A stretch of DNA of 59,111 nt, the filler included, from Jimgerdemannia flammicorona (lineage: Eukaryota): NCBI GenBank assembly GCA_003990765.1. It is 3 parts of 3 records of this genome, joined end to end, with 100 filler letters (N's around TTAATTAATTAA, not from the genome) between each part and the next. Parts side by side here need not be neighbours in the genome. Positions count along the whole stretch, not along the records: positions 1 to 19,645 come from RBNJ01001888.1; 2 more parts are not named here. One strand, written 5' to 3'. The position numbers and the translations under genes were made by a program. How positions within the stretch are numbered: the stretch's first letter is position 1; every line of letters begins with the position of its first letter. The notes beneath the pieces were generated by a model. That model saw only the letters and a list, made by a program, of their open reading frames with translations. It was not told the origin of the DNA and made no database searches. Positions 8,461 to 39,478 of this stretch are shown in pieces.

Positions 8461-11400
8461 CGAAAAGAATGGCGAACCCGCGGTGACGAGGACGGGATAT
8501 GTCGTGAAGTCGGATTGGAACATGGTTGCGGAGAGGGGGTTTAGTTCTAAAGGCTGGGGGCAGAAAGGGTGTGGGGAAGGGGATATAGGTTATAATTCTT
8601 CCCACGAGCAGCCACAAAATTTTACAATGCAACCGGTCAATAAAGGGGGCGTAGATGTCGCGGCGACGAGGTGTCTGCTGTATGCAAATCTATTCATCCT
8701 TTTTGAACGGGGTTGAGCTGTACGAATTAAAAAAAGTAATGGCCCGCCATATTTATAAAGCGCCCTGGCCCGCCATGCCCTCCCGCTCCAGCGCTTGTGG
8801 GTCAGCGTCTTTATAGTGCCCGATGCCGCGACACTGTAAAGCTAAGAGGAAGACGCCAGCTTATCTCTACTAGTTTTGACCCCTGTGGCGTGCGGTTGTG
8901 GGTCAGAGGTGAGTGAACAGAAATTTCACGCCTACAGTCGAGACTGATTGGTGAACAAATGCCGTGATGTGAATCGTGATTTACGCATTTATTGATTCTG
9001 AAAGATCTATTTTAATATAGTGATATCAATAGATATATATAATACTTTATAAAAAATAAAAATAAAAATATTTATTATTTTGAGATATTTTTATAGTAGA
9101 ATGCTCGTTAATTATTAGAAACTAACACTAATTTATTCTAAAAAAAAACTCTAAATATATATCTATTTATTGTTTTAAATAAAGTTAAAATAGAAATATA
9201 TAAGTTTTTATCATAAGTATATTTTAATAAAAATAAAAAATATATTATAATTTTCTTAAAAAAAGTTTATATAAACTTTTACCTTTTTAATATAATATTA
9301 TAAATAAATTATATAATTAAAATTAATTTATAGTATTTTATATTTATAATATGTAATAATACAGTATATCTTAATTATAATATATTTTCATATTATTTTT
9401 TTAGTCTTTTTTTATTCTTTTTTAAATAGCCTATAATATTCTATATAATTTTTTTTTAAATACTTAGAAATTCTTTCTTAATACTAAGAGATTAATAGAA
9501 TATTATAAACTTATATTAGTATAATAAAACTATATACTAATAGAATTACTATATTATAAATAATTAATAGTAATTATTGACTCTAAGTTTGAAATTCTTA
9601 AGAAAGTGTTGAGTTTTAAAATTACCTATTATAGCAAGATCCAAGTATCACTTTTAGGTTCTTGTCTAGGTATAGAAGACTATGCTTATATCTCAAGTTG
9701 ATCAAACTTAGAATAATTAATAAATTAGATCTGAGGTTTTAATAAAAATACTACTTTATTTTTAAATTTAGAAAAGTAGAACTGAGGTTGCAATTTACTT
9801 AGTATAAAAAATATTTATATATTTCAAAGCTATGATCAAATATAGTATACTGGATATGTCTATATATATATATATTATTTTGAGTACTATGACTATTAGT
9901 CAGAAATTCTATAGGAAATTCTTATTGAAAATTTCAGTAGCTTATAATAATTCATTATATCCTTCCCTTCTTTACTTAAACCTACTCATTAGTTTCAGTA
10001 CTAAACTTTAAGTATTTATCAAACTAAAGGACAGTTTACTGAACTACTTAAAAGATAATTTTACTTTATTATTTATTACTCAAGTTGGTAATATTCTTAG
10101 AGAATACTCTACAGAGGTAGTCAAGAACTCAGGATTAGATGCAGAAGAGAATATAGAGTTTTTTGGCAACTATATAAGTATAGTGATTAATGAAAAGGTA
10201 GACTTATTATTTTATAGTACTGAGAGTAGCTTATTGATAGATAAAGTATTCTATCTTATAGTACTCTTTGAGTTCTTATTGATATCAGAATGTCTGGAAA
10301 TACTATATTCTTCTAAGATATTATTGGATTTTATTTGGATCTGGGTCTAGATATTTATATTGATAGATAGTAGTTTGGTAGAGTTTTATTACTCTAAGAA
10401 CTGTAGTAACAATCTTATTTTTGACTTAATCTCAGTATTATTACTAAGTACTTATATTAGAAGAAGTGGGTTATCTATATAAGATTATATCAGAATATTT
10501 ATACTTCTTTTACCAAGATTATTCAAAGATATAACTGTCTTTTGAAAATTCCATCAAAATTTCCATTATATCAAATATTTATATTAGATTACTGCCTCTT
10601 CTATATTTGGTAATAAGTAGTCTTCTTTTTCTCAAATAGTATTATATTTGAGATATTCTTTCCATTTTATAAAATAGTACTAGATAGACTAGGTAGCTCT
10701 TTTAAATTGATGATTTTTATAATCTGGAATATTCAACTTTATATTCTAGCTACTGATCAAATATTATTAGATCTGGGAGTAGTATAGTTCTTTCTTTAAG
10801 GGTGTTTGGAGTATATAGCTGAAGTTGAGATATATGAAACACTGGATAAATTCTTTCTAATATTACTAAGAGATCTAATTTATATATAACAGGTCTATAT
10901 TTTTTAAGAATCTTGAATAGTCTGATATAGTAGGGTCTACATTTCTTTTTTAGACCTATATTACTCAGAATTAGGTTCTAAGTACTGAGTAATACTTATT
11001 CTTCTATTTGTAAGTGACTTCTTTTCTATTCTTATCAGTATATATTATTTGTATTCTTTGTACTTCTATGGGAGTATCTCATACTTGCTAAATATTATCT
11101 TATATAATATCAGTAATTTCTTATACTGCTGATACTATAGTTTGAATAGTAACTATTAGAGTTTGTGGATATTATCCATAGTTCAAGTAGAATGGTATCA
11201 TTTTAGTACTTGTGCTTAGACTATTATTATAGACAAATTTGGCTAGAGTCAGCTTTTCATTCTAATCATTTTACTTATAGCTGTAGTAGATGCTGAGAAT
11301 CTATTTCAGGGTTTGATTAGTTCTTTCTATCTAGCCATCTGTTTGCAGATAGTATACTGTAGATATTTTCAGTTATATTCCTAAACTCTTGAAGAGTACT

Positions 11401-12659
11401 TACTAAAATTACTTATAAACTTTGTATCTTGATCTGAGATAATTGCTAATAGTAGTCTATAAAGACAAAATATGTTATCAATAAATAGCTGAGCTGTTTC
11501 TGATACTATTACCATAGTAGTTATTATAATAAAGTGGATCTGCTTGCTGAGGCAATTAATGCAAATAATGATTGCATCTCTTCTCTTCTTAGTTTTTGAT
11601 AACTGGACAATGAAGTCTATTCTAATATAGTTCTAATTTCAGATAAGAATTAGTAGCAATTATAGAGTACTAGCTGATACTTAATTACTGAACTTATATC
11701 TTTAACAAATATCATAAGATACAATATAGTTCTTAATATTAAATGTCATTTTGGGCCAGTAGAAGTCTTGGGCAATATATTGATATATCTTATCAAAACA
11801 TATATATCTAGTTATAAGTATATCATAAAGTTCTTGTAGGATTCATAAATAGATAGGAATGTCAGAGATCCAAATTCTTATATTGTCAAGGTACAGTATT
11901 TATTTTGAACTAATATATTCTTATAGACTTTGTTTATGATATTATTGTCTTCTTCAAGAATTTGTCTGGTGATTTCTTATATGTATATTAGTATTTTTTG
12001 ACATACTCTTTCTTGAGTTCTTTAAACAGACTGATGATAATAATGTTAATTGCTATAAGATTATCTTTTTGTGTACTTCAGGAGAGTGCATCAGCTATAT
12101 CATTCTTGGTTCTAGCAATGTACTTGATTTTGATGTCAAAGGGTATAAGAATCTATATCTATTGGGCTTATCTTTTAGTAATAATTGGCTGTATCTAGAT
12201 ATATCAGAGGCCTTGATAGTCAGTCTATATATAAGAGAGTTACTTTGTTAGAGTATTATTATATAGTTCTGAAAGGGTTTTCTGGAAGTTCTGGATATTC
12301 TGAACTATTTTCTTTAAGATTAAGATCATTTTCATATAGAGTATATCTTCTATACTTATTGATTTCAAGATTAGATTAATGTCTCAACCAAAGTCCTTTT
12401 TCAGACTTATTCTGGATGTTCAGAAAATTCTGTATTTCAGGAAGTTTAAGAAACTAAGACCAGCTTAGTTGAATTGACATATCACTGCAGATAATATCTA
12501 ATTAGGAAATTTCATAACTTGGTTAGAAGTAGGATCTAATGGGGTACAGATTTACTTAAGAGTAGTTTGTAGATTATTAAATAGATTTAATCACTATTCA
12601 TAATATTACTATATTAGGAGTAGTGTATAAAGAGATATTGTGAAAAAGTATTCAGAAGT

Positions 12660-12830
12660 TCTTATATTCAGATCTGGTACTTGTTTTGTCTAAATTTCTG
12701 AGGTCTGGGAGAGTGGGTATTTATACTAATAGGAGGCTATCTGGACTATACTAAATATGGATATAGTACTTAGTGCTTTGCTGAGTTAGAATACAATCAT
12801 ATAGTATAAGTGTGAACTGATATATCAAGA
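12660..12830 (-). repeat. LTR-like repeat, copy 1
   Basis: About 160 bp aligns by eye with 18525-18676. The minus strand has TATAAATA. Boundaries are approximate. Confidence 0.6.
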
Positions 12831-14118
12831 GATCATCTGACTAATGAGTCAATATATAGTTATATCATATAAAGTTAATTTAACTATACTAATAACTGCT
12901 AAGCTATATATAGATTTAGATTCTATCTGAATAGTCTTTGATGAGGTCACTATTAATGATATTATCTCTGATAAAGTAGTTATCTAAGAGCAGCTTTTAG
13001 ATTATATCTTCTTATTTATTTATATAGTAATAGGTTAGAACTATATCACTATTCTACAGAATAGCATTATCTGTATTATATATTGGATATAGTATTGATA
13101 TATAGAGAAGGAGTGTATCATCTTTGCTTTCATCAAATTTACTATCTGCATATCTTTAGTAAGTATATAATAGTGCTATAAGTTGCAGGGTTATAGTAAG
13201 CTAGTAACTATATTTCATTTCATTTATACTCTATTGGTTTAATCTCAAGGGTTGTCTGGAGATATAGATTATGTTCTCTGATATCTTCATTATAGTTGAA
13301 GTAATCAAATATAAATGTAGGTTAGTACTCATGCCAGTGGTCATTATCTCAATAAGTTTCATAGATAGTTATAAATTATTATAAGTTCATTAATAAGATT
13401 GATAGAGTAATCAGGGCTGGCAGAGAATCTTAACTAAAGGTCATATTATCAGAGATATCATTGTCTTCTTTTTTATCATTATCAAACTAGATTATATTAT
13501 AGATATGTATTCTTCATAGTATATCTAACTTAGGATATTTGCAGAATATGATTATCAGGATGAAAAAAGGATCTGTCTGTAGTTTGAATATACTTAATAT
13601 ACTTGTAGTTGAGTTCTTATACAATATTGTCAATTTGGCCATAAGACAGAATGGTAACCATTTCAGCAGTAGTAACTTGGAGATAGAGAATAAAGATGCT
13701 ATACTTATAAAAGAGTTCTTAGTATTTATAAGTGATGAGTTTCTGGTATTGAGATATTTAGATAATATCTCTATTATAGTAGTGTTCAACTATATCTTCT
13801 AGAAGGTAGCTAATCTAGTAGTAGCTTGAGATTTGTCCAATTCAGTAGACTTTGCTAAGTATGTTCAGGGCATTCCATTGGGCCACTATGAAGTAAAAAT
13901 GTACCAAGCTATAGATATTTATAAGAAGCAGGAGAGATGTAACTTGGTTGACAATAGTATTCCCAATGTTAGTACAGATATAGTTATAGATCTCAGTAAT
14001 CATATTTATATATATATTCAAGAATTATAGTTGTTTGTTTGATTTGTTGTAGTTCTGTATTTCAACATACCTGTGTTTTAAATATATACTTTTTGTTCTG
14101 AATGGTAAGGTTTTATTT

Positions 14119-15884
14119 TATTTTATTTTTTTTTATTTTATTTTATTTTTTTAACAGACTCATAGTCCTGCAGATTTTTATTGAAAGGGAACCTAGACTA
14201 TATAGGCCAAAACCCTCCCCCACTACCCATCAAACAATATCCCCTCATTAATCTAGGCTACTAAACTGTCCAGTAGTCCCACTGCTCCAGCTATGTCTGT
14301 CAAACACTAGCTATATTGACCCCAATGACATAGACTAGACTTGTCTGCTCACCAGGGCTAGATCATCATTTACATGCAAGAGCACACCTATGCATTGGAT
14401 CTAGCAGTACTGGGACTGAATAAAGAATAGCCCCCCAAACCCCAAAAGAAAGCCTGAGGTAAAGAAAAAACCCCCCAACCAATCAATAGAGAACAAAGTA
14501 GATTCAGAGCAGATGAATAAAGGACTTATATGCAGAACCTTCCTCAAAGAACTTATATATACATGGGCTAGGACCAGGAAAGACCCCACTCTCACTCTCT
14601 AAGTCTGTGGGCCTCAATCATATTGCCATATCAGCTCCTAGTTTCAGTTGGGTATAGCCAAATAAGGAAGGCCCCACTCTCCAAGCCTGCAGGCCTTGAT
14701 TGCATTGCCGCATCAGCTCCCAGTTCTAGTTGGGTACAGCTAGGACACCAGCCCCTATACCACCCCACCCCCTATCAGCCAATCAAAAGGTCCCACCAAA
14801 ATATTGTTCATCTTAGCCCCAATGACTGCCCCCAGCCTGGCATCCCACTGGTTCATCATTATTGCCCTTCCTCCTATCTGTGATGGCCATCTCCCCTCCC
14901 ATCCCAACATCACCCAAAAAACAGTCACCTATGTCAGAACTATGCTTGCCAGGAAGCTCGCCAAAGCCAGAGGGCCCCACCACAGATACTAAGGATCTGC
15001 AGGTAACCTATACTGAGCACTTGACACCCAAGGTCAGCCAACTCCCTATGTAGTCTGAGACACACCAAGACAGTACCTTGTTGGCAATAGCAAAAGGAAG
15101 AAGGTGCTGCACCAAAATGGATGCACTCCAGATGCAGCCAAAGGCACCAGAAACCATGAAAAAGTGGAGAAGACACTGATCCAACACCAATAAAGGGGTA
15201 ACTTATCACCATTGCCCTCCTCCCACCATACCTATACAAGGTAGAGGAGGTAATAATAGGTAGTGCTCCTAACGAGTCAATTTAATCCGGATTGGATTCG
15301 GATTGATTCGGATTGAATCCCATCCGAATCAACTTGGATGGGATTCGAATCAACCATTGTTTTGATTTCCAAATTAGATAATTAAATGTTTACATCAATA
15401 ACTCAATGAATAATCATCCAAATTTGATGATCTTGGTGTCATTTGAAAGCCCTCAATAAGGCCTATCTAATGATACCAAGAACATTGAAATCGGATCATG
15501 TGTTGCTGAGTTATGAAGGAAACCGTCTGAATCGCCGATTTTGGAAATTCTTCGATTTGCCAATTTTGGAAATTTCGTCAAATAGAACGTTTTCCTTAAT
15601 ATCTCGGCAACGTGTAATCCGAATTTAATGTTCTTGATATCATTAGGAAGGCCTTATTAAGGGCTTTCAAATGACACCAAGATCATCAAATTTGGATGAT
15701 TATTCATCGAGGTATTGATGTAAACATTTAATTGTCCAATTTGGAAATCAAAACAATGGTTGATTCGAATCCATCCGAATCCCATCCGGATTGACTCGTT
15801 CGGAACACTAATAATAGGGGAAAGGGGACTCAGAAGGTTGCCTACCAAACCTTGTGACTGGTAAGATAGCAGAGAAAGGAGCTC
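14119..15884 (-). mobile_element. Non-autonomous LINE-like retroelement (~1.2 kb without its MITE insert), complete copy
   Basis: 16-bp TSD TGGTAAGGTTTTATTT at 14103-14118 and 15885-15900. AATAAA plus an (AAAAT)n/poly(A) tail lie at the left end on the minus strand. No RT. Other copies at 18677-19395 and 36623-36786. Confidence 0.8.
15261..15810. mobile_element. hAT-family MITE, 550 bp
   Basis: TIRs TAGTGCTCCTAACGAGTCAAT and ATTGACTCGTTCGGAACACTA. 8-bp TSD ATAATAGG at 15253-15260 and 15811-15818. The paralogous host copy (~18735-18760) shows the empty site. CpGs are retained. Confidence 0.95.
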
Positions 15885-16871
15885 TGGTAAGGTTTTATTT
15901 ATGTAAATCTTATATTTTGTGACTTTGAGTTGACTCAGCTTAATGCTCTGTAACTTCAGTTTGACTCAGCTTTGTGATCTTATATGTGATTTTAGTAGCT
16001 TAGAGGTTGTGCACTTATACTATAAAATGAACTTTTTGCTAAAGAGGAAATATCTCTATGCTTGTAGAGATCAGATAATAGCAAAGAGTATCTTATCTTA
16101 TATTATATAATTTCTTTTATACTCATTGAGTTTCTGAGACAGATAGATAATAGAGTATTCATATTGAGTCAGAACTGCTCTAATGGTAATGTTTGAAGCA
16201 TTAGTAGTAACTATGAAGAGTCTAATTAGGTCAGGGCTGATCAGGATTAGTATATTTTTAGTATTCTCTTGAGAGTATTCATAACTATAGTATATGCTTC
16301 TATCTATTCTCTTTCAATTTTAGCTCCTTTTTTTGGCAAGACTTGTGAGTGGGGCAGCAATTGTAGAGAATCTTTGAAAAAATCTCCTGTAATATTCTAC
16401 CAGTTTATTGAATTCTTATAAAAACTTAAGGGTTCTCAGAATGGGTCAATTGCAGATTACTTGAGTCTTCTTGGGGTTAATAGCAATACTATTTTCTGAG
16501 ATAATATGGCCTAAGTATTTAATTTTCTTCTTGAAAAAGTGATATTTCTTTCTTTTTACTAAGAGCTTATATTTGTAGAGTATGTTAAATATCATTTATA
16601 GATATTATTGATTCAAGATATTACTTGTACTGTACACCAGGATATCATCTAGATAGACTAGGATAAATACTCCAAGATATTTTCAAAAGATGTCATTCAT
16701 CAGTATTTGAATGGATACTGATGCATTTGTGAGACTAAATGATATTATACAAAATTCATAATATTCAAATCTTATTTGAAAGACTGTCTTGGGAATATCT
16801 TCTTCTTTGATATATATTAGATAATATCTAGATATATGATTGATGAGTGAGAAGGTCTTGGTCTTATATAT

Positions 16872-17261
16872 ATACTTGGTCAGAGCAATCTTTATCTCTT
16901 TTATTTATATCAATTTCAGTTTGCAAACTCTTGAAGGATAAAGATGATGAAGAAGACAACTTTCAAGAATTACTTAAGGATTATAAAGATATCTTTCAGG
17001 AATCCCAAGAACTGTCACCAGTCTGAGCAGTAGAATATAGTATTGAAACCATTTCCAGTTCTGACCCCTTCTACTATAAAATCTACTGACTAGCTCAACC
17101 CAAGCTAAAGACTCTCATCAAACTTACCATATAGTGCACCAATCCTCTTTATTTATATGAATAATAAAAGTCTTTATTTGTATATTGATTATTAAGCACT
17201 AACAAAGATTTCAATCGAGAATTAATATGTACTTTTAAGAATTGATGAATTACTTGACTAT
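16872..17261 (+). mobile_element. Inverted N-terminal RT segment of a Ty3/gypsy element
   Basis: Plus strand reads FQELLKDYKDIF...PYSAPILF...YIDY*AL...LRIDELLD, which continues naturally into minus-strand IYKTKTFSLI at ~16870. Confidence 0.75.
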
Positions 17262-17299
17262 AAAGTCTACTCAGTTACTGTGAGCTTAAGAAAACTAAT

Positions 17300-18300
17300 C
17301 ATCCAATAGTTCTGCAGCTCTGTCCATATTGCTAAAGTCAGATCTAAGCTTAAGAATCTTCAATTCTATAATGATAAAAATGAAGAACTTCAAGCATTTA
17401 CTACAAGACTAAAACTCCTCCTAAATACAATAAGAGTAGAATACAGCTAACAAGAATAGACTATAAATAGAACCTGAGCTACCTACTTCTTTAATACTAT
17501 CTCTGAATAGTTATTAGAAAAAATTTATGAATAAGAACAACTCTATAATTACTTATATAAACAATAGTTCCTAGGATAAGCTATCACTAAAACATATACT
17601 ATTTTTATAACTTAAAGGCTAAGAGACAACAGAAGTAACAAAGAAGATATCAATTCAAGAAGAAGTGTAAACTTTAGAATAAATTCCCAAGACTATAAGA
17701 TAGATTAAAAAAACTATCTAATAAGGAAATAGAAGAACTCATAAAGAAAGAAGTATGTTTTCACTATAAAAAGAGAGAATATATACATATCTCATAAATA
17801 CTCTGATAAGAAGATCAATATAAATAAAGAACTATCCTCCTCATATACCATTACTATAATAGAAGATAATCTCAAAGAAATCTCTGAAAAAATCAAGATC
17901 AAGAGATTCAATATTGCTGTGAAAATCTCAGACAAAGTATATGAATCTAATACTGACTATAATCTCTACCTAACATAGAAGTAATCATCAAACCAGACAA
18001 GTAAGGGACTATTATCACAGGTATAGAATAGAAGTCTCTAAAGAAACCTATAACTATCTTATAGAAAAGAGTAGTCTGATCAAAGAAGAGAGACTCCATA
18101 TAGCTGAAGGAGTTATAGACCAAGAATTCAAAGATGAAATCAAGGTTCTGCTATATAATACTAGATAGAAGAAAGTTGAAATAACATGTAGAAAATGAAT
18201 CATCTAAGCCATTATTGAGATAATTAATAACCTTAAAGTTGAAGAAATAAATGAACCATTACTCTCTAATATAGGAGAAATTTTTTTCAGATTTATAGAA
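17300..18300 (+). mobile_element. Degenerate LTR-retroelement gag zinc knuckle fused in frame to a dUTPase
   Basis: CFHYKKREYIHISY (17756-17797) reverts by transitions to CX2CX4HX4C. NTDYNLY (17949) reverts to DAGYDLY. Then KSSL, GVIDQEFKDEIKVLL (18109-18153) and FRFIE (reverts to FGSTG, ~18286-18300). Confidence 0.8.
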
Positions 18301-18524
18301 AAGTATCTTGATAAGATCAAGAAAAAGACTAATATACTATAATATACAAAATAGTATATATAACCAGATGATATAAATACTATAGTTACTTTATTGTTAT
18401 AGAAATTTTATAAATAACCAGATAGCTAAAAAGAGAAATAAATAGTTAATATCTACTAGACAGTAGATATCCACTAGATAGCTAATATCTACTAGATAGT
18501 AAATTATCTAATTCTTATCTATAC

Positions 18525-18676
18525 TCTTGTCTGAGTTTCTGAGGTCTGAGAGAGGGAATATTTATACTAATAGGAGGCTATCTAGACTAGGCTAAATATG
18601 AGTATAGCACTTTAGTACTTGATGAGTCAGAATATAGTCACATTGTACAAAGTATGAACTAATATATTAAGAGATG
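18525..18676 (-). repeat. LTR-like repeat, copy 2, cut by the retroelement at 18677
   Basis: Matches 12660-12830. Confidence 0.6.
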
Positions 18677-19395
18677 TCCCCTTTCTCTGCTATCTTACCA
18701 GTCACAAGATTTGGTAAATGACCTTCTGAGTCTCCTTTTCTCTATTATTACTCCTCTACCTTAGGTTGGTTTGCTGTACCTGTATAGACATGGTGGGAGG
18801 AGGGTAATGGTGATGAGTTGCCTCTTTATCAGTGTCAGATCAATGTCTTCTCTACTTTTTCATGGATTCTGGTATCTTCAGCTATATCTGGGGTGTACCC
18901 ATTTTGGTGCAGCATCTTCTTCCTTTTGCCATTATCAATAAGGTATTGTCTTGATACATTACAGATTATATAGAGAGTCGGCCAACCTTGGGCCTTAAGT
19001 ACCTAGTATAGATTACCTACAGGTCCTCAGTACCTGTGGTGGGGCCCTCTGGCTTTGGTGAGCTTTTCAGCAAGTATGGTTCTAGTGTAGGTGACTGTTT
19101 TTCAGATGTTGTTGGAATGGGAGAGAAGATGGCCATTATAGATAGGAGAAAGGATAATTATAATGAACCAGTAGAGTGCCAGACTGAGAGTGGTCATTGA
19201 GGCTAGAGCAGGTACTGCTTTAGTGGGGCCTTTTGATTGATATAGAGCAGTTAGATAGTAGGTATCACTTTCAGCTTCTTTTGGCAATTCAGCAGGTTGG
19301 ACCCCAGTCATTGGGGGAGATCAGGGGGGCCAAGGTTACCTATTTCAGGTATCTTGGCTACACTTAACTAGAACTGAGAGCTGACATAGCAATGT
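18677..19395 (+). mobile_element. Non-autonomous LINE-like element, copy 2 (5' part), interrupted by an L1-like LINE
   Basis: Reverse-complement match to ~14700-15884 without the MITE; begins CCCCTTTCTCTGC. Confidence 0.85.
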
Positions 19396-19407
19396 TATTA
19401 ACATACG

Positions 19408-19645: not shown

Positions 19646-19745
19646 NNNNNNNNNNNNNNNNNNNNNNNNNNNNNNNNNNNNNNNNNNNNTTAATTAATTA
19701 ANNNNNNNNNNNNNNNNNNNNNNNNNNNNNNNNNNNNNNNNNNNN
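19646..19745. other. Assembly gap with artificial TTAATTAATTAA linker
   Basis: N-runs flank a six-frame-stop linker; same structure as 39379-39478. Confidence 0.97.
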
Positions 19746-22088
19746 GACCCAACAGTCAAAGCATTCCAACCAGGCCTCCTCCACACTCCCCATACCAGCC
19801 TACTCCCCCAATGTCCATCGTCCCCAATGTCCCCCATCCCTTTTCTAACCAGGATGCCAACCTGCCCTGTCCATATAGCTGCCCCACCCCATTCCCGAGT
19901 CCAGTCCAGTAGGTCCACATCTGGCTCATACCACACATCCTGCAATAGGAAGAGATCTGCCTCCAGACCCTTCAACCAGCTAAAAATGTTTCTATGCCGT
20001 TTTGCCCCCCTTAGCCCATTGACATTCAAAGAAAAGATTCTAGTTGTACTGTTCATATTGAATAATTTTGGTAGGGATATCACAATCTAGAACTCCATGC
20101 TCCTCCTGTCCCCCTCCATATCCATGCGTCGCTCAGCCTCCAACTCGTCCTCCATCACCTCCTGCACATCCAGTGCCTCCAAGATTTCCTGGCACTCTGC
20201 TCCATCAACTACTTCGAATTCGGTCCGATACTCCCTGCACACTACTCCCCACTTCTCCAACCCTTTCTTCGAGTTCCACAGGTAAGCTGCTCGATCATTC
20301 GCAATCACTCGAAGTTCCTCCTCTCGCTGATCATCGACTTGATACTCCACCGACTCCAGGAGCACCGCCAGAATTTCATTCCGGACCTTCATTGGCATCT
20401 TCTCACCACGCAGAATTTCCTCCCAGTGCCTATCACTCATAACCCAGAAGTCCTCACCTCCCAGCTCCTCAGCTGCCACCCCTTCCAGAGTCTTCCACAG
20501 CAACTTCTCCTCCTCCACCACTGCCTCGGCACTCTGGGCACTCCCTTCCCCCCCAACCACTGGGTCCCCCACTGCGATCCTCCTTCCCGACTCATCCCAC
20601 TCCTCCTCCAGGACATCAAGAAGCTCCTCCTCACCTCCGACTCCTCCCGGGACCCCGTATTGTGGCTGTACTTCTATGCTCATCTCAGCGTCCTCCACCC
20701 CACTGCCCTGCCCTCCTTCCCCATGGACCTCTTGGGCCACCCTTTGATCTACTCTGGGCTCCCCAGCCCAGTCACTTTCCCTCGATCCCCCTCCACTTCC
20801 TCCCTCTCCATCTTCCACCACGCCTCCTCCCAATTTCTCCAACAGCTCCCTCTGAATACGCCTCCCCTGCATCTTCTCCCAAGTTCCTCAATCCATCCTG
20901 ATCTTCTTCCCTTCTACAATTTCCACCACCATCTTGGCCTCATACTCCTTTCAAGCCAATCGTCTCCTCTCGACAGCTCCCGTCAGATCCTCAAGAGCCT
21001 CCAGCAAATTCTCCTCTTCCTCCAGTGTCCCTTTCACCTGAGAGACCCTGCACTCAGCCTGTCCCCACTTCAGCATCGCCGGCCAGTCCCTCGCCTTCCC
21101 CATGTTCTCCCGACTAAACAAGCGTACTCTTACATCAACGTCTCCAGTCCTAAGTTCTGTACCCTCCCAGACTTTGAACCCGATATCAATGACATTCCCA
21201 TACTCCTTTACCACCTCCACAATCAACTCCCTAGCCCTCTCCCATGACACCATAGGAAGATCCAGCACTGTCAACTGCACCACTCTTGGGTCCCAGTGCA
21301 TGCACCTTGCCATAGGAACTACCACTCCACCCACTACTACCCCTTTCTCCATAGCCTCCAGCATCGACACCTCTTCTTCAAACCCAACCTCAATCCCTTC
21401 CTTCCCCTTCATGAACTTGACCGTAGCTGCCCCCTTCACCTCCTGCACCACCAGCCCCAGGATCATCCTCACAGTCACTGCCAAGCCTCAGAAACACAAT
21501 GTGACCACGAATTCTGACCTCGACTTTTTGAGTAACGGTGCCGACACCATGCCTGTCACTCCATCAGCCAGGTCCCCGGGCCTCGTGCCCTCCTTCTGAC
21601 CAGATCCGCCAACCACCGTCACATCTGGATTTTTCTCCAGATTCCCCGTCACAGCCCCATCAGCAGTCACATCTCCAACCCCTACTCCCCCTCCCCCCAT
21701 ACCGACTGAGGCTCCCATGGGGGATCCTCCCTGCCCTCCTTCTGAACCCAGTATCACCTTCCCCAGTCCCAACCAACCATCCAGCCCTGCGGCCATCTTC
21801 CCCATCCTGACCTTGTTGGCAAAGGTCGCCCTCCCCCCACCTCTCTGCCTCAGTCTACCTCTCCCTCCACCTCCAGCGCCACCACCCACCACAGACAGCC
21901 CTGGAATCTCCAAACCATCTCCTCGTTTCCTCCCAACCTGCTGCCAGTCGAAGGCCCGGCTGCCCCCCTGGCCGACCTGCCCACCAGTTTGCTTGTTGCT
22001 CGCCATGTTGATAGTAGCTTTTCACCAAAAACTTCGCAGAAAGTGTTGTCCAAATCTTGTGTCACCTGAATGTTACTAGTGAAAGGTG
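19746..22088 (-). mobile_element. L1-like LINE (copy 2): 5' UTR, ORF1 (22006-20087, ~639 codons, two nonsense changes) and start of the ORF2 APE endonuclease (ATG 20056)
   Basis: Three track ORFs lie in one frame, broken by TGA codons. ORF2 reads IFSLNVNGL...ADLFLLQD. The 5' end CACCTTTC is at 22088. Confidence 0.92.
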
Positions 22089-23849
22089 CTGACCAGAATT
22101 CGATATCAGATAATCCTTGCAGATTATGCTGCTGCTATCCGAGATCAAGTAGCTGAAGCAACCTTCATGAAAGGAGTCCATCCAGAAAAAGCCATGGCCA
22201 TCTGCTCATCACCAGTAATTCTGGATCTACCACAGAAGGTCACCTATGCTCAGCAATACTAGATAGCCAGACATCCACAAGACCATACAATGGAAAGGGT
22301 CACAGGAGTCAGAATCGAGGCACCCAAGGCAACTAGTGTGATCCCTACCACAATGATCAATCGAAATACACCTCAGCCAAAAGTTACAGAGCAGCAAAAG
22401 AACAGTGACCCTATGGAGGAACTTGCCAAAAGGTTTGCCAAAATGACTGCCCACCTGGGAGATGTAGTAAAGGAAATTTGAGAAAGAGACCGCCACTCTG
22501 TCCAGAAGTTCGCCACCACCTCAGACAAGAAGAAAGGCACCTGCTATACTTGTGGAGAAGAAGGCCACTACTCTTATGAATGCATGAGCAAAACCAAGCA
22601 CAAGGCTCAACCAAAGCAATGCTATATGAAACAAAGAGCAGGCCAATATAATTACCTTTGAGGAGATTGGAGATTCTGATGAAGAAGAATGGGAGGCCTA
22701 TCCTGCTCAGACCACCAAGAAGAATGCTTGCAAAGTGCCCTACAAGAGACCACCAGGAAGACCCAAGAAGAACCCAGTGGAAAAGCAGATGGAAACTGCC
22801 ACAGAAAGCCAAGCTGAAGAGATGGACCAAGATATAGAGCTGGAGCAAGCAGTTCAAGATATCATCCGAGGAACCACTCCAGCCAGTGAAGGAGAAAAAG
22901 AAAAGAAGCTTTGCAAGACCAAGACCTTCAAGTATGATATCTTCAAGGACCTCAGCGAACAAAAGGTCAATGCAACCTTTGGTCAGCTTGCAGAAATCCC
23001 AACATTCAGACAGCAAATGAGGTTTGGACTTGCTGAAACAACTAAGAAACAGGGATGGAAGATAACTGAGGCCAATAATATTCAAGAGGACTCAGGAGAA
23101 GAAAGTGAGGACAATCACAAAACCTCTGCATATGCAACATGCCAAATTGAAGATAGAATCTTTGAGGCCATCATTGATACAGGAGCAGGAGGATATCTCC
23201 TCAGCAAGAAGGCAGCAGACTGCCTAGGTTGGGATGTGGAAGAAGCAACTAAGCTAGTGTTCATCACAGCCGATGGCACAAGAGCCACACCTCTGGGAAA
23301 GATCCAAGACATTCCCATCAAGATTGGAGGAGCAACCATCTCAGTAAATGTAATTGTAACCAACACCACCAACTATGACATCCTCATTGGCAATCAATGG
23401 CTTCACAAAGCCAAGGCAGTAATCGATCTCAATGCCCAGAAGATACAGATCACCTACCAGGGACAGAAGATACAAATTCCCATCAATGTTAACAAAGGAG
23501 TCCTGCTCGACATGGAGGAAGAAGAGAGCAAACAAGAGGAAGCTTATATGGTGACTACTCCAAAGAAGAAGAAAGTTGGATGGATGAGTGAAGAAGAATG
23601 GTGCAAGAAGATGGCAAAAGGCTATGCACCACAAGGAGTCTGTCCTCATGGAATCAGGATGTACTATATGGAGCATATCAATGATTGCTACCAGTACACC
23701 ATCAGAATCAGGAAGATCCACCAGGAAAGAAGGCAGAAAGCTCTCAAAAAGCAGATCAGAGAAGAAGAGAAGGAGGAAGATGATGAACCACCAGCTCTCC
23801 TGGAGGACAGTGATGATGAAAAAGAAATCAAGGTCACCCTGATGCAGTC

Positions 23850-24227
23850 TTGCCAGAATACAAGTCAGAAAATGCAGCTGGAATGGACATCACTACAGTA
23901 GAAGAGACTATACTAGAACCCCAGACAACCACCCTACTTGCAACCAGATTGGAGATGACCATCCCAAAGGATCATGTCGGGATTCTCAAGACAAGAAGCA
24001 GCCTGGCTAGAAGCAAAATTACAATTGAAGGAGGAGTCATTGATTCAGACTACACTGGAGAAATTCTACTCATTGCTAGGAATCACAATCCTACAATCCC
24101 ATTTCCAGTCAAGAAGAAGGACCAATTGGCGCAAATGTTGATCTTTCTGATCCTACAACCAAAGATCATAGAAGTTAAGAAGCTGGAGGAAATAAGAAGA
24201 GGAAAGAAAGGATTTGGATCCACAGGA
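23850..24227 (+). CDS. Trimeric dUTPase domain within the retrotransposon pol, in frame with RT
   Basis: All five motifs are present: AGMD, RSSL, GVIDSDYTGEI, LAQ, RGKKGFGSTG. Confidence 0.95.
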
Positions 24228-26922
24228 AGAGGAGTATTTGCCAACATCAAGATCACTGAACTTGAGCATAAGAAGGAGGAAAACACAAGCAAGCACAGCT
24301 ACACCATCAGAAATGAATTTCCACTCAAGAAAGAACTCAAGAAAATACTCCATGAATTTGAAGATGTCCTTGCCACAGATTTCAAGGATATCAAAGGAAA
24401 GACCCCACACTACTATCATGAAGTAGATACTGGAGACACTGAACCAATTTATCAGAAGGCAAGACCTGTCCTGCCAGCCTACCAAGAATGGCTCAGAGAA
24501 GAAATCAAGCAGATGGAAGAAGCTGGCATCATTAAAGAAGCCAGTAGCCCCTGGTCCTCACCTGTTATACTAGCCTCAAAAAAAGGAAGTAAGCCTGGAG
24601 AATTCGCCCCAAGACTCTGTATCAACTACAGAAAACTCAACATGGTTACCAAGAAGGATTGCCAACCACTGCCCCTCATCAATGACATCCTTATAATACT
24701 GGGAGACAAAGCACAATACTACAGCACCTTGGACTTATACTCAGAATTCCACCAAATCGGACTCACAGATATGGCAAGTGAAAAGTCAGCTTTCATCACT
24801 CCAGATAGAACCTATATCTACCTACGAATGCCATTTGGAATGTGCAATGCACCAGCAAGTTTCCAGTGAATGATGAATAAAATCTTCCACTATGACATGG
24901 GAAGATGGATAATGGTCTACATCAATGATGTAATCATCTACAGCAAGACACCTGAGGAATATCTGCAGCACATACAGCAGATAATGGAGAGACTAAGACA
25001 ACATGGCCTTTACATCAAACCCAAGAAGTGCAAGTTCGCAGAAATCGAGATCTCCTATCTTGGCCACATCATCAACCGAGATGGAACATATACAGACCCC
25101 CTCAAGATACAAGCAGTGGCAGCATACCCAAGACCCACCACTGTTATGGAAGCCCAAGCCTTCATGGGACTCACCTCCTATTATCGCAGATTTATTAGAG
25201 AATTTTCTAATATTGCAGGACCAATCTACAAACTTAACAAGAAGGATACCAAGTTTCAGTAGACTGGCAAACAACAAAAAGCATTTGATGAACTCAAGGT
25301 CAGACTGACCCAGGTATCTATCCTCAGAAGACCTGACTGGACTCTAGAATTCATCCTATAGACTGATGCAAGTGCACAAGGACTAGGAGCAGTCTTAGCT
25401 CAAAAGAAAGATAAAGTGGAGTATGTCATTGCATACCTCAGCCGCAGAACCCGAGGAGCTGAAAAAGAATATGAATCCTACAAGTTAGAATGCCTTGCAG
25501 TCATCTAGACCATAGAAAAGTTCCACTACTACTTGGCTGGAAGATACTTCACCATCCAAACAGACCACTCAGCTCTCACCTGACTACTGGCAACTGGACA
25601 ACCCAAAGGAATCTATGCCAGATGGATAATGAAGTTGCAAACTTATGATGTAACTATCATACACCACTCTGGAAGAACCAATGCTAATACCGACACCCTC
25701 TCACGGACACCCTGAAAGACCCCACCCCAACAAAATCATCATGAATAAGAAGCTCTACTACAGAATTATCACATACCTGAGACAGTGAAAGATGCCCCAA
25801 ATCTGGAAGAATGGACACAAACGATTATCAACAGAACATGGAAACAATTCGAAACTGATGGAGAAACACTGAAGAAAGGAAAACTACTAGTCATACCAGA
25901 ACATAAGAAGGAACAAGCAATGAAATCAGTACACAAACTTGGCCATCTAGGAGGAACAAATACATACAACAAGACAAGAAGAACAATATGGTGGCCAGGG
26001 ATGGAGGAAGATATCAGACAATTTGTCAAGACCTGTGACAAATGCCAGAAACAGAAACAAGATCAATGAAATCAAGCCTCAGGATCAGCACACATAGAAT
26101 CAGTACCATTTGCCCACATTGCAATGGATGTAATTAGCCCTCTACCCTTGACTTTGACTGGCAACTGATACATCATCGTTATTGTAGACCTTTTTACAAA
26201 ATGGATAGAAGCAGGACCCCTTATAGAAGCCAATGCACAGTCAATTGCTGATTTCTTCCACAAGGAAATCATCTGCCAGTTCAAAACTCCAACACAAGTA
26301 ACTACAGATAGAGGAATAGAATTTGTGAATCAGTTCTTCGAAGTTCTCTACAAGAAGTACAAGATCCAGCATATTTGGACTACAGCATATCACTCTCAAG
26401 GAAATGGACAAGTAGAAAGGACCAAAAAAACCCTCAAGAATGTTATTGCCAAGATAGGCGATAACTACGAGAACTGGGATCACTATCTACCAATAGCATT
26501 ATCTGCCCTCTGAGATATCCGATCACAAAGTACCCACTTTACCCCTCGAGAAATGCTGTTCGGAGAAGAATGTTCTCAGGGAACCCTGTCATCCAATGGA
26601 GATGCTGTATGGAAACATGTGGACATGGAAATATAGAGACTACACCAAATCAGAAAGAAGGCTGAGGATTACATAATGAAGGCACAGACACTACAATGGA
26701 GAAATGTGGAAAAGACCCACAAACCCTTGGAGATTATCAAGATAGGAGACAAAGTCCTGGTGTATCGGAATATGGTTGAAGCTTCATGGTCATGAAAACT
26801 GGAGCCCAAGTGGAAAGGACCTTACCTTGTGCAAGATATAAAAGAAACCACCTTTTGGCTACGAAAACCCTCAGGCACAATAATCCCCACCACCATTCAT
26901 CGAAACTGACTCAAGAAATATT

Positions 26923-39378: not shown

Positions 39379-39478
39379 NNNNNNNNNNNNNNNNNNNNNN
39401 NNNNNNNNNNNNNNNNNNNNNNTTAATTAATTAANNNNNNNNNNNNNNNNNNNNNNNNNNNNNNNNNNNNNNNNNNNN
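39379..39478. other. Assembly gap with artificial TTAATTAATTAA linker
   Basis: N-runs with the linker. Confidence 0.97.

Follow-up and report, generated by a model that had tools for sequence, protein, structure and literature searches.

The locus described here, in the genome of Jimgerdemannia flammicorona, raises the question of how a nucleocapsid-type zinc knuckle came to be followed by a dUTPase with no protease between the two. It lies in a 59,111-nt stretch of DNA (filler included), hereafter the window, whose first 19,645 nt are contig G000:C1888. The original prediction saw in it the betaretroviral architecture, a nucleocapsid (NC)-dUTPase fusion upstream of the protease, reached independently by a fungal LTR-retroelement lineage. 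The fungal LTR retroelement was borne out. The locus very probably represents the Gag end and dUTPase of a dead chromovirus-type element, a Ty3/gypsy LTR retrotransposon (family A), whose polyprotein, dUTPase capture and decay are set out below; the assignment to family A leans on sister families.

A decayed and rearranged copy

The domain order at 17756-18303 is real, and its first wording was inexact. A knuckle-like CFHYKKREY starts at 17756 (+), and KSSL, GVIDQEFKDEIKVLL and FRFIE follow downstream as claimed, up to 18303; in this copy the knuckle and dUTPase indeed lie too close together for a protease to fit in. The claim that one frame runs through the region did not hold, because 17732-18303 consists of four segments separated by three frameshifts, with frames starting at 17732, 17769, 17969 and 18031; two of these shifts lie near 17975 and 18030, 3' of the KIKIKRFN frame start. 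The quoted string IHISY is absent from the sequence, which reads IHIS and then a TAA stop (17795-17797). The segment KIKIKRFN...YESNTDYNLY is present from 17892 (+), but in a different frame from the knuckle and 30 codons 3' of it. Reversing transitions was said to restore a CX2CX4HX4C motif. In the frame used for that claim the codons are TGT, TAT, TAT and TAA, and no position within 17256-18337 is compatible with the motif; in this AT-rich region the test is weak, at least one compatible site arising in 12% of 500 shuffles. With its stops and frameshifts the copy is dead and cannot be active. Its parts are listed in Table 1.

Table 1. Parts of the family A copy in the window, with examples of the Cys/His module (positions are those of the window unless a locus is named)
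Feature	Position	Strand	Evidence
Gag remnant (capsid C-terminal part and spacer), 5' end cut by rearrangement	17248..17755	+	tblastn with sister-family Gag at 17295-17531, E 5e-8; family-copy matches begin at ~17248
Single decayed CCHC zinc knuckle, frame break in TA run at ~17780-17790	17756..17801	+	Ligand counts over 39 copies; zf-CCHC at the corresponding position in families B, D and F
30-codon linker with hydrophobic strand YTITIIE, candidate protease site	17802..17891	+	Similar strands in D, B, F, P0008 and P0122
Trimeric-type dUTPase remnant in three frame segments	17892..18303	+	PF00692, E 3.9e-6 on 18031-18336
Reverse transcriptase (RT) N-terminal part, inverted relative to the rest of pol	16925..17260	+	tblastn, RT 1-123 at 16973-17297, E 3e-15; contiguous with RT C-terminal part in unrearranged copies
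RT C-terminal part (YLDD) and N-terminal RNase H	16020..16883	-	RVT_1, E 1e-13; RT_RNaseH_2, E 7.8e-13
Later insertion(s) of other repeats splitting RNase H, 3.8 kb	12232..16019	.	RNase H 1-73 at 16244-16026, RNase H 76-123 at 12224-12081; same insert elsewhere in L086 and L088
RNase H end, integrase (region 10560-11860), SH3-like domain, probable chromodomain remnant	10560..12231	-	Integrase_H2C2, E 4.5e-8; SH3_Tf2-1, E 8.6e-10
Probable 3' LTR	9513..9940	-	~420-nt repeat shared with other family A loci
Cys/His module, examples	window 23590-23721; L082:561-737; L100:2096-2263		

Most of the element is on the minus strand; the RT N-terminal part and the gag-dUTPase block (17248-18337) are on the plus strand, and about 780 bp containing the Cys/His module and the protease are missing from it. 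The junction between the RT N-terminal end and the gag start (~17250) was found in none of the 39 other scored family A matches. In the window copy, the 42 nt otherwise found just before the gag break adjoin the RT C-terminal part at 16879-16920, so the two joints (16879-16920 and 17248-17260) are reciprocal. A block appears to have been excised and inverted beside its own site (16879-16920, 17248-17260, 18337), which may reflect either a rearrangement resembling reinsertion of a circle or a mis-assembly. RVT_1-type RT, Ty3-type RNase H and an H2C2 integrase are all detected by Pfam in this copy. A sister-family SH3/chromodomain segment matches 10947-10581 (tblastn, E 3e-8); the Pfam Chromo profile has no match in the window copy. 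The ~420-nt repeat taken as the probable LTR occurs, among 10 long loci, upstream of gag in five (L087, L089, L090, L092, L093) and downstream of integrase in two (L091, L095), and never on both sides of one locus.

Several other features share the window. Another abundant repeat family occupies 12232-16019 and 18529-19400, with an internal part at 12230-14118 and LTR-like parts at ~14157-15887 and 18680-19400; it is inserted into the RNase H and beside the dUTPase of the family A copy. The repeat at 18680-19400 was considered as a family A LTR, and the inverted pair 15809-15879/18680-18750 as the mark of a DIRS-like element. Both readings were rejected, since the distance and orientation of the repeat relative to family A copies vary, and it is also found inside a family B copy. 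Within this abundant repeat, 15284-15791 is a MITE-like element with 205-nt inverted arms that are 87% complementary, found also in L004 and L092. The N gaps (19646-19745 and 39379-39478) carry an artificial linker with stops in all frames, the window being made of separate contigs joined together. An ORF at 20087-20442 (-) continues into MNSTTRIFSLNVNGLRG..., which we take to be the start of a LINE AP-endonuclease; Pfam gave no match on its 266-aa frame. A non-element ORF of the window has a relative, P0156, at 63% identity in a Mucoromycota fungus.

Domain order and decay across family A

A DNA search returned 271 candidates for family A, of which 40, the window included, were scored (80-83% identity), and 52 distinct contigs drawn from window-DNA and dUTPase-protease queries were examined for domain order. 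The profile scan that the original prediction had proposed found the dUTPase. The 3' piece of the window copy, with stops read as X, scores 27.1 bits against PF00692 (cut-off 22 bits), and four other copies read in the same way score 35-67 bits (E 2e-18 to 1e-8). Pfam found no dUTPase in the 5' pieces of the window copy and no knuckle in it.

The first knuckle ligand and dUTPase motif 1 are 168-227 nt apart in 51 of the 52 contigs (51 were measurable), with a mode of 192 nt (19 of 51), which is in frame; the window copy has 196 nt. A protease would fit into none of these intervals. We looked for copies with a protease at that place, which would have made the window copy a deletion, and found none. 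A protease lies within 1.3 kb downstream in 39 of the 52 contigs, upstream in none and on neither side in 13. Although the dUTPase-protease query had supplied 25 loci, the 29 loci that came from window DNA only have the protease downstream in 17 cases and upstream in none. Family A therefore has its dUTPase between knuckle and protease, and the window copy carries no deletion at that point. The remaining pol order, protease-RT-RNase H-integrase, is seen in copies L086-L088, L090 and L091, the window copy being rearranged.

The knuckle is degraded throughout the family. In 39 normally spaced copies its four ligands C, C, H and C are retained 13, 6, 19 and 4 times and are otherwise almost always Tyr, and no family A copy listed keeps all four together. 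Pfam matches to the family A protease and knuckle regions of L052 and L065 did not pass, and the protease of L007 reached an E of only 0.066. The identity of the knuckle in the window copy is supported by the family tallies and by the sister families.

The modal knuckle-dUTPase-module-protease spacings are all multiples of three. In 12 of 50 copies the knuckle-dUTPase interval is 1 nt short, with indels at scattered positions, and a subfamily sharing a -1 frameshift was rejected on that ground. The in-frame modes and scattered indels indicate that family A had one reading frame and no conserved frameshift.

The copies diverge by 21% pairwise, 88% of the differences are transitions, and no CpG is left. 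The C/T and A/G differences are equal (20850 vs 20252), and single-strand (APOBEC-like) hypermutation was rejected for this reason. In the younger family B the change rate is 0.24 at CpG vs 0.05 at CpA; family A now changes mostly at CpA. After insertion, the window copy would have decayed by C-to-T change on both strands, at CpG first and then at CpA, a course that fits methyl-cytosine deamination or a RIP-like process in this genome. It would also have received its insertions, undergone the inversion of Gag-dUTPase and the RT N-terminal part and lost the Cys/His module and protease.

Sister families and the Cys/His module

A Pfam dUTPase search of the genome gave 8265 first-look candidates, which are not copy numbers; all of the 150 that were scored exceeded the cut-off. 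Three younger families with chromodomains (B, D and F; Pfam Chromo E 1.9e-9, 2e-13 and 1.2e-16, respectively) encode CCHC-dUTPase-protease in one natural frame. Family B loci L047 (648 aa) and L035 (542 aa) are stop-free with zf-CCHC, dUTPase and protease; in 15 of 20 family B loci the dUTPase shares its frame with an intact knuckle motif, and six of the 20 are stop-free through the protease. Four of 10 family D loci are stop-free through the dUTPase, L082 has a stop-free frame of 665 aa, and in L076 and L096 a single frame with a few stops spans all domains as far as the integrase and, in L096, the chromodomain. The family F protease site reads IMIDSG and was detected by Pfam (0 of 5 by the protease regular expression). 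Domain order, single frame, abundance and the recurrence of this layout in the three younger families are thus direct observations. Many contigs hold near-identical open copies, so the dUTPase-bearing elements have expanded recently. The family D Gag (L076:1068-1895, L077:6871-7635) has an apparent N-terminal extension of ~250 aa with no Pfam match.

Family D is the nearest relative of family A by dUTPase (SH-aLRT 97 and 91, quick trees), and a single origin of the A, B, D and F enzymes was neither supported nor rejected (p-AU 0.37, quick tree, 28 of 72 rows). RT and integrase trees of this genome's families and one environmental protein, with no reference clades, did not resolve the four families. 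Homologue searches gave either no match or one near-identical protein. Outside the genome, among the 150 environmental matches listed, three besides the near-identical P0001 show the layout at least in part: P0008 (knuckle, dUTPase, module and protease start), P0134 (knuckle, dUTPase and protease) and P0122 (knuckle and dUTPase). Other environmental proteins differ in organization. In P0073, P0115 and P0139 the dUTPase follows the chromodomain, an order like that of PosPlaTy3-4, P0002-P0006 have three dUTPase-matching stretches, and P0018 has 11 CCHC repeats. The best-scoring dUTPase of the genome, L031 (G000:C6287:6598-6984, -), lies in CpG-rich DNA with no element domains and in quick trees clusters among cellular-type proteins and away from those of the elements; it is probably a host-type dUTPase gene or a recent copy of one.

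A module of ~45 residues, C-x-H-x12-C-x2-C, adjoins the dUTPase in families A, D and F, in the unrelated family C and in environmental proteins P0008, P0013, P0019, P0097 and P0137; the family A copy of the window has lost it. Its ligand pattern, at C28, H30, C43 and C46 in L082:561-737 numbering, suggests a zinc-binding role. The module has no Pfam match; its best hits are at chance level in the ESM Atlas (score 0.80) and at E 0.38 in a PDB sequence search. An AlphaFold2 model is confident (pLDDT 83, 7 rows), and fold searches with it gave no clear match (Foldseek best E 3.9, VIA-align best Z 4.1), results that do not make the fold new.

The module order is dUTPase-module-protease in families A, D and F and protease-module-dUTPase in family C. 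The latter is represented in the window by a second, less decayed Gypsy element at 22527-26567 (+), with the order CCHC-protease-Cys/His module-dUTPase-RT-RNase H-integrase, in which the last module Cys reads Tyr and no chromodomain match was found. Two placements of the dUTPase, before and after the protease, therefore occur in one window.

Origin and processing of the dUTPase

Family A encoded one polyprotein, Gag-one CCHC knuckle-dUTPase-Cys/His module-aspartic protease-RT-RNase H-integrase-(chromodomain). We infer that the element acquired its dUTPase from a eukaryotic gene of cellular type, at the Gag/protease junction, that the enzyme entered the virus-like particle as part of the polyprotein and that the element's protease most likely cut it free at both ends. 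In A, B, D, F, P0008 and P0122 the knuckle is followed by a hydrophobic strand, the family linkers carrying theirs (ITVI, ISVI, ILVL, VTTL) at a distance of 10-15 residues, and similar strands precede the protease in B, D and F (LNTI, VASI, ITTI). Such strands would mark Ty3-type cleavage sites, and Gag/protease cleavage is expected there in elements of this kind. As a loose hydrophobic pattern they point to cleavage in the linker; the available part of PMC3185560 holds no rules for Ty3-type sites. A role proposed for retroelement dUTPases is to prevent uracil from entering the cDNA in settings of low cellular dUTPase (PMC4531489, PMC2864245). In keeping with that role, which these sources ascribe to retroviral dUTPases, the packaged enzyme may have lowered dUTP during reverse transcription, leaving less uracil in the cDNA.

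The main rival to this account is that the NC-dUTPase junction stayed uncleaved, so that the mature particle would contain an RNA-tethered NC-dUTPase trimer in true functional convergence on MMTV p30 and the M-PMV NC-dUTPase. Four divergent families have a short linker of comparable length, the distance from knuckle end to dUTPase motif 5 is 157-162 residues in B, D and F, and P0008, P0122 and P0134 keep the adjacency. Each linker nevertheless contains a hydrophobic strand resembling the one before the protease, and these elements have a single knuckle and no frameshift. We regard an uncleaved junction as possible though unlikely, and a mature NC-dUTPase fusion in these elements as putative. 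The broader proposal is a fungal chromovirus lineage with an independent, mature, uncleaved NC-dUTPase fusion, made in frame at capsid level and not at frameshift level, together with an undescribed zinc module that moved with the dUTPase between unrelated co-resident Gypsy lineages (dUTPase-module-protease in A, D and F, protease-module-dUTPase in C). This appears rather doubtful to us.

Derivation of the dUTPase, or of the whole NC-dUTPase block, from a betaretrovirus would account for the identical gene order (PMC4531489). The best PDB matches of the family D dUTPase, however, are the yeast (117 bits) and human (114 bits) enzymes, vs 67 and 54 bits for the lentiviral ones of EIAV and FIV; entry 3TRL for M-PMV (named in PMC4531489) does not appear among the best 60 of 78 rows, and the pol, with its SH3 and chromodomain, is that of a Ty3/gypsy element. 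Such a derivation is very improbable. That the knuckle-dUTPase adjacency is a by-product of a rearrangement removing the protease, as the scrambled, protease-less window copy and its private RT-gag junction might suggest, can be given almost no credence, because the lost segment lies downstream of the dUTPase and 51 of 52 contigs, as well as three other families, keep the same spacing.

With capture from a cellular-type gene as the preferred reading, the comparison with betaretroviruses stands in part. In betaretroviruses, ribosomal frameshifting yields the NC-dUTPase as a trans-frame protein, with NC integral to the mature enzyme (PMC4531489). Family A shares with MMTV p30 and M-PMV the order NC-dUTPase-protease, the dUTPase being coded directly after NC, and the homotrimeric PF00692 enzyme (PMC4531489). 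It differs in having one frame, one knuckle, a cellular-type sequence and no env seen, and there is no trans-frame gag-pro junction, given the in-frame modal spacing of family A and the stop-free single frames of B and D. The betaretroviral architecture that had been predicted thus holds for the order, but neither a frameshift nor betaretroviral-type sequence accompanies it. Independent origin, also predicted, fits a dUTPase that does not resemble the betaretroviral type in sequence. The case is not the first in fungi.

A similar layout is already described for PosPlaTy3-3 of Postia placenta, a fungal Gypsy element whose Pol carries the dUTPase at its amino-terminus (Novikova et al. 2010, PMC2864245). 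This basidiomycete element shares a dUTPase before the protease with family A, the likeness being one of description and not of compared sequences; its published text mentions neither a frame common to Gag and Pol nor an adjoining CCHC knuckle nor a Cys/His module. PosPlaTy3-4/-5, Phanerochaete elements and Tuber Tmt1 (as cited in PMC2864245) and the bdelloid Juno, Vesta and TelKA (PMC5408684) also bear dUTPases. Like family A these are Ty3/gypsy elements with a captured dUTPase; unlike it, they carry the enzyme between protease and RT or at the Pol C-terminus (PMC2864245, PMC5408684). Family C of the window has the first of these two orders. Juno also has an extra Zn knuckle after its dUTPase (PMC5408684). 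An Entomophthora preprint reports protease, dUTPase and zf-CCHC domains as co-enriched, their order not being given in the part available, and the available parts of PMC1224870 and PMC3185560 offered nothing decisive for the comparison. In the literature on dUTPase in LTR retrotransposons, chiefly open-access papers and in the parts available, we found no description of an in-frame CCHC-dUTPase or of the 45-residue Cys/His module, the latter a modest detail.

The elements described here add one more case to the recurrent capture of dUTPase by retroelements, at the betaretroviral junction but without a frameshift. Because it holds several divergent dUTPase-bearing families with two domain orders, this genome is good material for testing whether the position of the dUTPase and its fusion to NC affect retrotransposition.
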